DNA of 17,535 nt, from UHGV virus genome UHGV-0122804; one strand, 5' to 3'. The notes under the pieces are model-generated. The model saw only the letters and a program-made list of their open reading frames with translations, did no database searches and was not told the DNA's origin. The DNA is from a virus. Shown here in pieces: positions 4,737 through 6,272 of the stretch (its first letter is position 1; each line of letters begins with the position of its first letter). A program made the translations under genes and the position numbers.

Positions 4737-4866
4737 TTTTATGGGTGGCTTCCTTATCGGCTTCGGCATCTGTCGTGATTTAATTAAGCAGGAACTTAAA
4801 ACCAAAACACTGTGCATCGGAAAGCGTGTGTATCGGGTAGTTCATGAAACAAAGGTGAAAAAATGA
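4714..4866 (+). CDS. small predicted membrane protein (50 aa), absent from the supplied ORF track
   Basis: ATG preceded by aggag (4701-4705). Hydrophobic N-terminus ISLAFMGGFLIGFGIC. Stop TGA overlaps the ATG of the next ORF (4863). Confidence 0.45.
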   Translation: MIPYISLAFMGGFLIGFGICRDLIKQELKTKTLCIGKRVYRVVHETKVKK

Positions 4867-5153
4867 GCGATTTAACTTCTTGGGAATGGTGGTTGGCCAC
4901 CTATTTCTTAGCGGCCGGAGTCGCATTCGCCTTTTACGTAGGTCAGTTAGTCGTAAAACTGTTGCTGATTAAATTTGCTAGTCATAAACGTATCGATGAT
5001 GGTCTGTGGCGTCTTGGCACCCTGGTGGAAACTCGCTACGGGCAACTTAAGGAGAACGAAACCATTACTATCCAAGCGAAACGATTCACTGCCACCATCA
5101 CAAGAACACCTAGTCGTAGAGTGGCCTTGATCAAAAAAGTCACAACCGAATAA
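4863..5153 (+). CDS. hypothetical protein with N-terminal transmembrane helix (96 aa)
   Basis: Hydrophobic segment WEWWLATYFLAAGVAFAFYVGQLVV. Coupled to the upstream small ORF. Confidence 0.5.
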   Translation: MSDLTSWEWWLATYFLAAGVAFAFYVGQLVVKLLLIKFASHKRIDDGLWRLGTLVETRYGQLKENETITIQAKRFTATITRTPSRRVALIKKVTTE

Positions 5154-5162
5154 AAATACAAT

Positions 5163-5200
5163 GATAAGTATTTACTTACTTATCTTTTGTGTATAAGATG
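5163..5200 (+). promoter_or_regulatory. Motif A copy 2: GATAAGTA-N6-TACTTATC then TTTTGTG and TATAAG, at the head of the 760-bp non-coding region
   Basis: gataagta (5163-5170) and tacttatc (5177-5184) are exact reverse complements. -10-like TATAAG at 5192-5197. Confidence 0.5.
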
Positions 5201-5548
5201 ACTTTGTTTTCGTTGAGACGCGACTGTTTGAACTTAAATACAAGTGCAAACGAAGAAGTCTATCTGGCAGTAGCCTAATAAGCCAAACACCAGCGAGGTC
5301 AGTTTCCAGCCTCGTTACCGAAATGGGACACACTGAGCGAGTGTGATTGCAAAACGCAGGTAGGGCATCTGGTTAACCAGTGCCCTTACCAATGAGGTAA
5401 CAGAATGGGCGGTTGGGTTTTATGTCCAACACATCCCGGCTCCCAAAGGCCCGACCGTCTATCCTGTTACGTCATTTCTGTTACTTATGTCGTTTAGTTT
5501 TGGGTTAAAAATGGCGACGTAACCCGGCTGGTTAGGTGAGCCAGCACG

Positions 5549-5641
5549 CAACGTTGAGACCACTGGTTTTTGCATCACAGGGGCAGAACCGGCAGACATG
5601 TAGGGCCAAGTACATTAATCCGTTCAGTGGTCTCAACGTTG
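5549..5641 (+). other. Perfect 17-bp inverted repeat enclosing a 59-nt loop
   Basis: caacgttgagaccactg (5549-5565) is the exact reverse complement of cagtggtctcaacgttg (5625-5641). Confidence 0.6.
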
Positions 5642-5705
5642 TGGTCACGGATTCATTATCCTTCTGGTTATAGCCATTGTTGTCACTGCCCCGTGGCCAC
5701 AACGA

Positions 5706-5733
5706 TTAAATGATTCCATACATCTAATTAGAT
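5706..5733 (+). repeat. Motif B copy 2 (TTAAATGATTCCATACATCTAATTAGAT) in non-coding DNA
   Basis: Shares about 26 nt with copy 1. Followed by the perfect palindrome atctaattagat (5722-5733). Would encode only MIPYI-stop. Confidence 0.7.
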
Positions 5734-5913
5734 CTGAATGAAAACTCTCCTCAACTCTCGGAGAATATTTGAAGATCTTGGCTTGTAAGCGTTTGGTGAA
5801 CACGTAAAGCACAAGTGGCAGGAAACGGTAGGACTGCTGCGAACGACACCGGTGAATCGGCGATACAGCCCCACAAGTCCGTGAATCGACAGAGGCTGAC
5901 GGTGTCAACCTTA

Positions 5914-5988
5914 GATGGTGTAGCTCAGTGGTAGAGCGGTTGACTGTTAATCAACTGGTCGGTGGTTCGAATCCACCCACCATCGCCA
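5914..5988 (+). tRNA. tRNA-Asn (anticodon GUU), 3' CCA encoded
   Basis: Hand-folded cloverleaf: acceptor GATGGTG/CACCATC, D stem GCTC/GAGC, anticodon stem GTTGA/TCAAC with loop CTGTTAA, T stem GGTGG/CCACC with loop TTCGAAT, discriminator G then CCA. Differs from E. coli tRNA-Asn as I recall it. Confidence 0.93.
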
Positions 5989-5989
5989 A

Positions 5990-6072
5990 CACAGCGCTGA
6001 ACGGTTTGGAGTTCGCCACCACCATCCGAACGGAAAGACTCCGCAAATGTCGCCAGACCGTTCAGCGCTGTG
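5990..6072 (+). ncRNA. Candidate structured RNA element directly 3' of the tRNA (20-bp stem with one G-U pair)
   Basis: 5990-6009 pairs with 6053-6072: 19 Watson-Crick pairs plus one T-G that is a wobble only in the + strand transcript. Loop contains an inner gttcg/cgaac hairpin. Confidence 0.4.
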
Positions 6073-6136
6073 ATAGACACGTTCTTAACCATTGCTTCTT
6101 AGCATCGTAGCAACACTTTTTTCAGCGCAAATAATT

Positions 6137-6160
6137 AAAGGGGCTTCGGCCCCTTTTGTA
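6137..6160. terminator. Bidirectional rho-independent terminator
   Basis: GGGGC-TTCG-GCCCC stem-loop, with TTTT downstream on + and an A-run upstream that gives TTTAATTATT on the - strand. Sits between the tRNA unit (+) and the 3' end of the - strand gene. Confidence 0.8.
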
Positions 6161-6272
6161 AGATTAGCAAAAAAGAACAATATTACTTGAAAAAAAAGAC
6201 AAAGTTAGTCAATTTCATTTAATAACACCAATGTCATAATCGAGGACCTTGCTCCTCTGCTTAATTAAACCA

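Follow-up and report, generated by a model that had tools for sequence, protein, structure and literature searches.

Computational analysis of a phage RNA module with a tmRNA-type tag template, no tRNA-like domain and a 5′ end complementary to host tmRNA

Introduction

Bacteria rescue stalled ribosomes and control the quality of their proteins mainly by trans-translation; this pathway is a drug target, and some phages are known to depend on it. The present work concerns the virus genome UHGV-0122804, of which one stretch of 17,535 nucleotides (nt), called the window hereafter, was analyzed, and within it the apparently non-coding gap of positions 5154–5913 that precedes a gene for tRNA-Asn. 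It can be firmly concluded from our computations that this region is a structured RNA gene whose 5′ module is a member of an extensive family of phage RNAs that had gone unrecognised. The members of this family hold a tag template of the kind found in transfer-messenger RNA (tmRNA, the product of ssrA) with selection acting on the encoded peptide, have no tRNA-like domain, and are complementary at their 5′ end to the start of the host tmRNA template. Phages may therewith possess a means to block or re-code the ribosome-rescue tag of their hosts.

The closest systems described so far are of bacterial and of phage origin. Two-piece tmRNAs exist in addition to the one-piece form (PMC11915505). 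An exhaustive survey of 2014 found phage ssrA in mycobacteriophages and Bacillus phage G only and none in enterobacterial phages, and for the partial tmRNA of mycobacteriophage DS6A an interference with the trans-translation of its host was proposed (PMC4131195). The 2025 update comprises 79 phage sequences, for which an intact tRNA-like domain was required (PMC11915505).

The window is, as judged from its sequence, an SSU5/pHCM2-like phage-plasmid. Its identity to Klebsiella phage-plasmids of this family, such as pJN2-26 and vB_KpnS_p4727, amounts to 94–96%, and that to Salmonella phage SSU5 to about 87%. All of the evidence presented here is computational.

The tag frame and its upstream box

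A tmRNA-type tag frame is located at positions 5246–5281 of the plus strand, on which the other parts of the RNA gene and the tRNA-Asn are also placed. It reads GCA AAC GAA GAA GUC UAU CUG GCA GUA GCC UAA UAA and would encode ANEEVYLAVA followed by a double stop; the enterobacterial host tag ANDENYALAA is of equal length and likewise ends in a double stop. Among the homologues fetched, the encoded peptide follows the pattern AN(D/E)(E/N/D)x(Y/F)LAVA, and the frame is open in all copies found but one. That lone exception, on a plasmid of Klebsiella pneumoniae AR_0152 (locus L011, 1284–1316), has TAG as the fifth codon of its tag (ANDN*YLAVA) and is also missing the tRNA-Asn; this copy may be decaying or may encode a shortened tag.

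Further copies were collected by a pattern scan of IMG/VR, which supplied 120 more loci. Since this first pattern fixed many positions, the scan was re-run with the downstream pseudoknot as anchor to give a second sample. Frames that were new in the pseudoknot-anchored sample include GCT AAT GAT AAC ACG TTC CTG GCA GTA GCT TAA and GCA AAT GAT GCT CAA TTT CTG GCA GTG GCG TAA TAG, together with one TGA stop and rare V-to-A and N-to-K replacements. Over the whole family, variation in the tag frame falls at nt 3, 6, 9, 18, 24, 27 and 30 and in the stop codon, and codon 5 is hypervariable; the changes at nt 3, 6, 18, 24, 27 and 30 are synonymous, while the stops interchange among TAA, TAG and TGA.

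No conventional start is apparent for this frame. From the nearest in-frame upstream stop to the GCA codon there is no ATG, GTG or TTG in 107 of 136 distinct contexts, and the spacer before GCA differs in length by numbers that are not multiples of three. A small hairpin (UUUG-AACU-UAAA, 5227–5238) is followed by the upstream box UACAAGU (5239–5245), in which A5242 and C5241 stand at −4 and −5 from the resume codon. In each of the upstream octamers tabulated and of the variants listed, the nucleotide at −4 was A and that at −5 was U or C. Frame setting on Escherichia coli tmRNA cannot do without A86 at −4, and the change U85C is tolerated; the tmRNA pseudoknots, pseudoknot 1 (PK1) included, and the content of the tag are replaceable (PMC2481249). 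Because the variation is biased towards synonymous changes, a conventional start is mostly lacking and the A at −4 is invariant, the phage frame looks like a working template for trans-translation that is selected at the peptide level. An alternative +2 frame (AUG/GUG/CUG CAA ACG ... UGG CAG UAG) was considered and rejected, its start being unconserved and its codons undergoing radical Q/P/L changes where the tag-frame changes are synonymous.

The origin of the template can be approached through its resemblance to bacterial genes. The phage upstream box and first codons are homologous to those of some bacterial ssrA, with AAAGAUA..GCAAACGACAAUCAGUA in common. A minority form of host ssrA, encountered among prophage-border copies (L452 onward), reads AAAAAGAUAGUC GCA AAC GAC AAU CAG UAC GAA GCA CUA GCA GCU UAA, and it has the upstream box and the first five and a half codons in common with the phage tag type ANDNQYLAVA. 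This sharing points to capture of the phage template from a bacterial ssrA of that kind.

Complementarity of the 5′ domain to host tmRNA

Upstream of the template, positions 5205–5230 make up a domain antisense to host tmRNA, with block 1, GUUUUCGUUG, at 5206–5215 and block 2, GCGACUGUUU, at 5220–5229. Across the family the blocks read AGUUUUCGU, GCGAC(U) and then UUUGCGGGUUUUUA or CUAUUUU/CUGUUU, and these are colinear with GUAGUUUUCGUCGUUUGCGACUAUUUUUUGCGGCUUUUUAC, the reverse complement of nt 68–106 of E. coli ssrA. Local alignment of seven non-SSU5 representatives (prophage, Felix O1, 157-kb and Erwinia types) to the antisense of ssrA nt 68–108 gave z scores of 4–10, equalled by at most 2 of 300 shuffles. 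The same test remained at chance for three SSU5-type sequences, that of the window among them (z 0.8–0.9), and alignment of the 5′ domain to the ssrA sense strand was at chance level.

For the window itself the duplex was computed directly. RNAduplex paired 5205–5230 with nt 81–105 of E. coli tmRNA at −26.3 kcal/mol, through 10 base pairs (bp), a 4 × 3 loop and another 10 bp, and 2 of 500 dinucleotide shuffles did equally well. The same antisense helices appear in RNAcofold dimers of the window, of a prophage copy and of Sf13. Against full-length tmRNA with long loops allowed, RNAduplex gave shuffled sequences equal scores, for which reason the antisense tests reported here use the local target region and the statistics of alignments.

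The pairing falls on the part of tmRNA where reading of the tag begins. For 115 unique variants, the conserved blocks are directed at A86–C91 and C95–C104; the optimal duplex spans A86–C91 in 86–100% and A97–C104 in more than 90%, and the target on tmRNA (nt 86–104) takes in the frame-setting A86, the −1 triplet, the resume codon and codons 3–5. Block 2 retains Watson–Crick complementarity to the host at 81–100% per position, and its substitutions comprise 12 G-U wobbles and 20 mismatches, the latter mostly a Felix-type U opposite U88. In prophage types the duplex with tmRNA extends to about 35–40 nt, and in other phage families the pairing also reaches the 3′ half of PK1. As the blocks do not follow the variation of codons 3–5 in their own phage, they are evidently not paired with their own template; pairing of the 5′ blocks with the phage's own tag or with loop 3 of the first downstream pseudoknot (PKa, described below) was examined and rejected, there being no covariation.

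On the host side, the target site is identical in the ssrA recovered from Escherichia, Enterobacter, Raoultella, Kosakonia and other enterics, and in 112 of 120 prophage-border copies of ssrA. Raoultella and Enterobacter sequences together with these 120 prophage-border copies stood in for the ssrA of Klebsiella and Salmonella. The target site differs in Yersinia ssrA. Viewed as an antisense RNA, the family possesses an extended, conserved complementarity to tmRNA that exceeds chance.

Over the remainder of 5154–5990 complementarity to tmRNA is at chance level, with the exception of a marginal match of the 15-mer AUGAUUCCAUACAUC (5710–5724). This 15-mer is predicted to be single-stranded and is near-identical in all SSU5 subgroups, with rare single substitutions. 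It would pair with tmRNA nt 317–329, beside the T-arm, through 13 bp and one bulge at −14.9 kcal/mol (4 of 300 shuffles equal), and is to be taken as a weak lead only.

Architecture of the module

The conserved module of positions 5205–5358 is best explained as an mRNA-like domain (MLD) without a tRNA-like domain. Upstream of the template, where tmRNA has PK1, it carries the hairpin and the antisense domain, and downstream of the template it carries two pseudoknots supported by covariation. A conserved linker, GCCAAACACCAG (5282–5293), takes the place of tmRNA helix 5 and is nearly invariant in alignments A1 and A2. The first pseudoknot, PKa (5294–5328), consists of stem 1 at 5294–5298/5310–5314 (CGAGG/CCUCG) and stem 2 at 5304–5308/5324–5328 (UUCCA/UGGGA), the PKa stems of the SSU5 type having been assigned by eye. 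The second, PKb (5329–5357), has CACAC (5329–5333) and GUGUG (5341–5345) as its stem 1; in the family of the window the 3′ strand of its stem 2 (CGC, 5355–5357) is probably used instead by a long-range helix.

In 41 distinct non-SSU5 sequences, the upstream hairpin, both PKa stems and PKb stem 1 taken together are 95.4% paired, versus 33–53% when the partners are slid. PKa stem 1, PKa stem 2 and PKb stem 1 are each 100% paired with none broken, and seven pair changes are double-sided (five in PKa, two in PKb stem 1). As for PKb stem 2, some lineages have longer complementary stems instead, which MAFFT misaligned. A brute-force covariation scan over column pairs was swamped by the split of the family into two major clades.

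Proposed mechanism and the antisense alternative

Tentatively, and with a little less than half of our belief, we favor the interpretation of the module as a parasitic "template-only" tmRNA, in which the phage RNA would anneal to host tmRNA, mask its template and substitute its own, thereby swapping the tag. As complementarity and conservation suggest, the 5′ antisense blocks would anneal to host tmRNA over A86, the −1 triplet, the resume codon and codons 2–5. Such pairing would hide the frame-setting nucleotide and the tag template of the host; in the geometry that we infer, the tethered, single-stranded phage box (UA or CA at −5/−4) and the GCA resume codon would emerge at the PK1-proximal end of the duplex. 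The distance from the duplex end to the phage resume codon is 16–22 nt, versus 11 nt from PK1 to G90 in tmRNA. Ala-tmRNA-SmpB would then rescue the stalled ribosome with translation resuming on the phage template, and the stalled proteins would gain (A)AN..(Y/F)LAVA, not (A)ANDENYALAA. This last step is suggested by the selection at the level of the peptide, as no other way for this frame to reach a ribosome is visible. The downstream pseudoknots would stabilise the phage RNA as they do in tmRNA.

Several points weigh against such a template swap. The entire case is made in silico, for the transcript, the pairing and the LAVA-tagged proteins alike, and two of the sequence sets were collected by patterns that fixed some positions. 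The complementarity of the SSU5 type, two 10-bp helices (p ~0.004 by shuffling), is weaker than that of the prophage types; block 2 of the Felix and Erwinia types has one or two mismatches; and scans for antisense variants fitted to ssrA of the Aeromonas or Yersinia type returned chance matches or the prophage-border host ssrA itself. In native tmRNA, PK1 takes up nt 49–78, and S1 or SmpB may occupy the MLD, so that the target may be less accessible. No template provided in trans is, to our knowledge, known to function in trans-translation, and the duplex could just block tmRNA. The benefit of a (Y/F)LAVA tag is not explained either. In E. coli, ssrA tags altered so as to end in LVA still lead to degradation, so the phage tag may stay a degron with an altered preference for adaptor or protease.

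The same complementarity and conservation would equally serve a pure antisense inhibitor of tmRNA. This would pair at A86 and the resume codon and either block tagging and rescue or trigger cleavage by RNase III or RNase E, with the tag-like segment left untranslated. Such an anti-tmRNA is simpler than a template swap, and the prophage-type duplex of about 35–40 nt could be a substrate of RNase III. It would also have company, as prophage anti-sRNAs that pair with small RNAs (sRNAs) of the core genome, such as AgvB and AsxR of enterohaemorrhagic E. coli, are a known class. Codon-periodic, largely synonymous variation, the fixed number of 10 codons, the interchange of stops and the invariant A at −4 before GCA are however left without explanation by inhibition alone. 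One would also expect a decoy acting as RNA to repeat the tag sequence of its host, from which codons 3–10 differ. We deem this alternative, the main rival of the template swap, unlikely, though it deserves to be taken seriously.

Absence of a tRNA-like domain

The tRNA-Asn(GTT) that follows the gap (5914–5988) is an ordinary tRNA with an encoded CCA (ARAGORN and Rfam, 77.5 bits), and its T-arm is the only one that a T-arm search of the window returned. ARAGORN at its default settings found no tmRNA in the window. A standard or permuted tmRNA gene was rejected: the "permuted tmRNA" calls made by relaxed ARAGORN borrow the T-arm of the next tRNA or choose nonsense tags, and the tRNA-Asn was likewise rejected as tRNA-like domain, being an ordinary tRNA in whose place other families have different neighboring tRNAs or none. 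The third acceptor pair of tRNA-Asn is U-A, not G3:U70. A permissive Rfam scan yielded sub-threshold matches to permuted tmRNA only, within 5148–5329, and the best of these covered the tag only (RF04321 with 22.2 bits against a threshold of 47, and RF01850 with 17.3 bits against 84).

(A/U)GUUUUCG marks the beginning of the conserved RNA and comes right behind a −10-like element in SSU5-like and Felix O1-like phages, or else behind a hairpin. Because the RNA begins right after the −10-like signal, there is no room for a 5′ acceptor strand, and no acceptor piece was found upstream of the module. In most prophage copies there is no T-arm from −450 to +800 nt and no tRNA within 2 kb.

These findings bear upon another explanation, by which the module would be the coding piece of a phage two-piece tmRNA, with its tRNA-like domain supplied by a separate phage acceptor piece, a neighboring tRNA or a tRNA-like module, and with host tmRNA not needed. 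It agrees with the existence of two-piece tmRNAs (PMC11915505), with the usual position of the module beside tRNAs or tRNA-like scaffolds, and with the relaxed ARAGORN reports of a permuted tmRNA that borrows the next T-arm. It is nonetheless improbable in our estimation, as many copies are without a T-arm or a tRNA over the distances just given, the neighboring tRNAs are ordinary ones of varied kinds (Asn, Arg, Ser, Met), modules with their own promoter have no 5′ acceptor strand ahead of GUUUUCG, and the antisense relation of the 5′ domain to host ssrA is left unexplained.

Distribution and annotation of the family

A BLAST search with the gap retrieved its first ~110–150 nt at ~76% identity in 317 phage records. 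The module lies within the tRNA array in Felix O1-like Ounavirinae, between pR′/qut and the late terminator in HK620 and other P22-like or lambdoid phages, and upstream of tRNA-Ser in the Klebsiella siphovirus Carvaje. Queries with variant modules added 288 further records (221 of them full-length), the best being ~157-kb Kuttervirus-type phages such as SFP10, which we take to be Ackermannviridae; 36 Erwinia phiEa21-4-like phages were found by the same queries. The region of the window type is present in 775 PLSDB plasmids. Among 5426 complete E. coli genomes, 258 have the window-type module and 137 more the prophage type, about 7% together, on SSU5-like plasmids or prophages, and the module is also found in many phage-plasmids of Klebsiella, Salmonella and Enterobacter. 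The invariant blocks are kept in at least five unrelated phage groups.

Annotation at the module is "none" in essentially every match listed, and hundreds of INPHARED phage records are affected. Rfam holds no model that matches the module at gathering thresholds in the window and six related loci, so the family search that had been advised in a preliminary description of this DNA returned no family. Full-text searches of the literature libraries covered yielded no description of the module. The Pas sRNAs of lambdoid prophages were compared and are unrelated to it.

Two settings of the module can be singled out. In a Yersinia pestis plasmid of the pG8786/pMT1 type (L009, 1201–1720), the RNA homology ends after ~415 nt, some ~100 nt before caf1R, and the F1 capsule (caf) locus occupies the place of the 3′ domain and tRNA-Asn. 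With this part replaced and Yersinia ssrA differing at the proposed target, the copy probably has no function. In lambdoid and P22-like prophages (HK620, L003, 2300–2900; L015, L019, L025, L047), the leader from Q/pR′ to holin is a chain of unannotated RNA modules, among them covarying "helix X" hairpins (CACAAC-A-GGUAAGRGCA...UGCUCUUUCC-GUUGUG), followed by tRNA-like scaffolds with the acceptor stem GUUGUGG/CCACAAC and then by genuine tRNAs. One scaffold of L047 possesses D- and T-arms and has a ~57-nt insert replacing the anticodon arm. Neither the helix X hairpins nor the tRNA-like scaffolds of this leader gave a match in Rfam.

Transcription unit and the SSU5-specific domain

In relatives of the window, the segment from a small hypothetical gene (window 4863–5153) to tRNA-Asn is unannotated, bar one dubious call of 46 amino acids; in the homologous region of pJN2-26 the depositor's sole annotation is such a minus-strand 46-residue "hypothetical protein". 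The small gene upstream is named "C-type natriuretic protein" in SSU5 and several plasmids, an implausible name that was apparently copied between records. The preliminary description had seen no credible open reading frame in 5154–5913, and this is borne out: the frames present do not exceed 87 amino acids, none of them matches Pfam, and relatives differ there by many indels whose length is not a multiple of three. It had also called the region highly structured. The RNA of 5205–5913 indeed has a minimum free energy of −249 kcal/mol versus −206 ± 6 for dinucleotide shuffles (z = −6.9), and the region is a non-coding RNA gene transcribed towards the tRNA.

Transcription would start at about 5204–5207, as predicted from the −10-like promoter element TATAAGAT (5192–5199). 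An element of the form TAnnnT keeps a constant distance to the conserved GUUUUCG in the SSU5-like subgroups and in Felix O1-like phages, and in the latter it is preceded by TTGACA-17 nt. A sigma-70 consensus scan of the region called no promoter at its thresholds, TATAAGAT included. Throughout the SSU5 family the tRNA-Asn always lies 583–772 nt (mostly 634–698) past the tag start, and all four SSU5-like subgroups can be aligned across the entire gap. The best explanation is a single transcription unit that leads from a promoter near 5195 through a structured RNA of ~700 nt to tRNA-Asn, where cleavage by RNase P would set or release the 3′ end of the upstream RNA.

The surroundings of the tRNA-Asn hold further elements. 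In L006 (pSTM_Phi) an extra mini tRNA-like element of ~60 nt (GGGAGTT...GTGAGGTTCGATTCCTCAGCTCCC) is inserted just before tRNA-Asn, ~100 nt upstream, with a 7-bp acceptor-like stem and a canonical T-arm and with no anticodon arm. Directly 3′ of tRNA-Asn in the window, a 20-nt inverted repeat (95%) at 5990–6072 encloses a loop of 43 nt with GGAGTTCGCCACCACCATCCGAA, a sequence similar to the T-arm and 3′ acceptor end of the neighboring tRNA-Asn; the repeat may represent a fragment of a tRNA or an att-like remnant, or may encode another small RNA. Downstream of it comes a strong hairpin with a T-run (6137–6156).

Behind the conserved module, a structured domain specific to the SSU5 family (5350–5795) is closed by the long-range helix 5350–5356/5790–5795, which shows a compensatory change of G-C to A-U. 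Eight helices in 5350–5840 are supported by RNAalifold and by explicit pair counts in alignment A3, where 81 pairs are 99.3% paired versus 33–53% with the partner slid, and 15 pairs have changed on both sides. The first hairpin, of the helix X type, carries compensatory changes in 5 of its 10 pairs. A hairpin with a TTAA loop had been noticed here at 5363–5385; hairpin and TTAA-centred loop are real, and its true extent is longer (5359–5390). It is deleted in L121, and a hairpin of this type (GGUARGRGCA...UGCYCUUWCC) is also found in lambdoid prophages. It is followed by a 25-bp helix with a variable tip (5392–5417/5450–5476; 99.4% paired, with G-C/G-U/A-U exchanges) and by two hairpins that are 100% paired (5485–5494/5513–5522 and 5527–5532/5540–5545), the second with one compensatory pair. 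The perfect 17-nt inverted repeat 5549–5565/5625–5641, with 59 nt between its arms, is exactly as first described, and as an RNA hairpin it has three compensatory pairs; one pair of the repeat is A-U in 10 sequences and G-C in 9. This hairpin is dispensable, as it is missing in L098 and half-deleted in L010. Two small hairpins (5796–5798/5810–5812 and 5818–5821/5837–5840) have compensatory changes in both. The SSU5-specific domain of 430 nt would be an accessory structured domain.

Compensatory changes hence keep the structure in homologous regions, so that relatives lacking conserved structure or covariation, which would have refuted the preliminary description, are not what is observed. The position upstream of a tRNA, the deletability of individual hairpins and the evident derivation of the MLD from bacterial ssrA could also be accommodated by a structured tRNA leader or processed spacer, or by a decaying fragment of captured ssrA, without any function in trans. 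Yet ~75% identity and the invariant blocks persist in hundreds of records from at least five unrelated groups, some without a nearby tRNA, the structure is maintained by compensatory changes, and the frame is closed in a single copy only; such a leader or relic is accordingly very improbable. A mere long tRNA leader, as initially proposed, finds no support, given the many copies that lack a tRNA within 2 kb. Hardly credible at all is a cis element at the DNA level (replication origin, pac or partition site), a variant of which had also been proposed at first: the inverted repeats and non-coding nature would suit it, but the module occurs in unrelated genomic contexts (late operons, tRNA arrays, plasmids with unrelated replication and packaging systems), its substitutions are codon-periodic, and its covariation is strand-specific with G-U intermediates and therefore fits RNA. 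Absent from the preliminary description were the tmRNA-like template for a tag, the complementarity of the 5′ domain to host tmRNA and the spread over unrelated phages.

Significance

If the template swap is true, it would be the first natural template supplied in trans to trans-translation and the first virus to re-code a quality-control tag of its host, and it would provide a naturally occurring means of re-coding degradation tags. Pairing of a phage RNA with tmRNA exactly at the frame-setting nucleotide would, whether for inhibition or for a template swap, constitute a new layer of virus–host conflict. The module merits an Rfam family, being unannotated in hundreds of phage records and in ~7% of complete E. 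coli genomes.

Comparison with known systems

With the stable RNAs of the T4 tRNA cluster, GOLLD and ROOL, the locus shares a structured RNA beside phage tRNA genes that is probably released by tRNA-processing enzymes. The likeness to the T4 RNAs, which had been suggested initially, is one of location alone and fits the genomic setting, the Felix O1-like module lying inside a tRNA array; the GOLLD and ROOL models gave no match at E ≤ 10 in 5050–6250, nor at gathering thresholds in the window and six related loci.

Bacterial tmRNA of the E. coli type (SsrA, RF00023) resembles the phage module in the startless frame that opens with GCA (Ala) and has 10 codons and a double stop, in UA/CA at −5/−4, in the AN(D/E) start of the tag and in the pseudoknots after the frame. 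Unlike tmRNA, the phage module is without acceptor stem, G3:U70, T-arm, CCA and a PK1 in sense orientation, its tag ends in (Y/F)LAVA and not YALAA, and its 5′ domain is antisense to tmRNA. In the two-piece tmRNAs of Alpha- and Betaproteobacteria and cyanobacteria (RF01849–51, RF04321), the template likewise resides on a separate RNA that is base-paired to the tRNA-like part, as is presumed here. The known pieces, however, both come from one gene, with the coding piece bearing the 5′ acceptor strand, whereas the presumed partner of the phage module is a complete host tmRNA, paired at its template region.

Among phage-encoded derivatives of tmRNA, the module can be placed beside the "TLD-only" tmRNA of DS6A, named for its tRNA-like domain (TLD), and the full-length tmRNAs of Bxz1-like phages and Bacillus phage G; DS6A retains the tRNA-like half, while the phage module retains the opposite half. 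Finally, as with the anti-sRNAs or RNA sponges AgvB and AsxR, an RNA of a mobile element is complementary to a conserved small RNA of the core genome, but the phage module differs from them in that it targets tmRNA and adds a translatable-looking template and pseudoknots.

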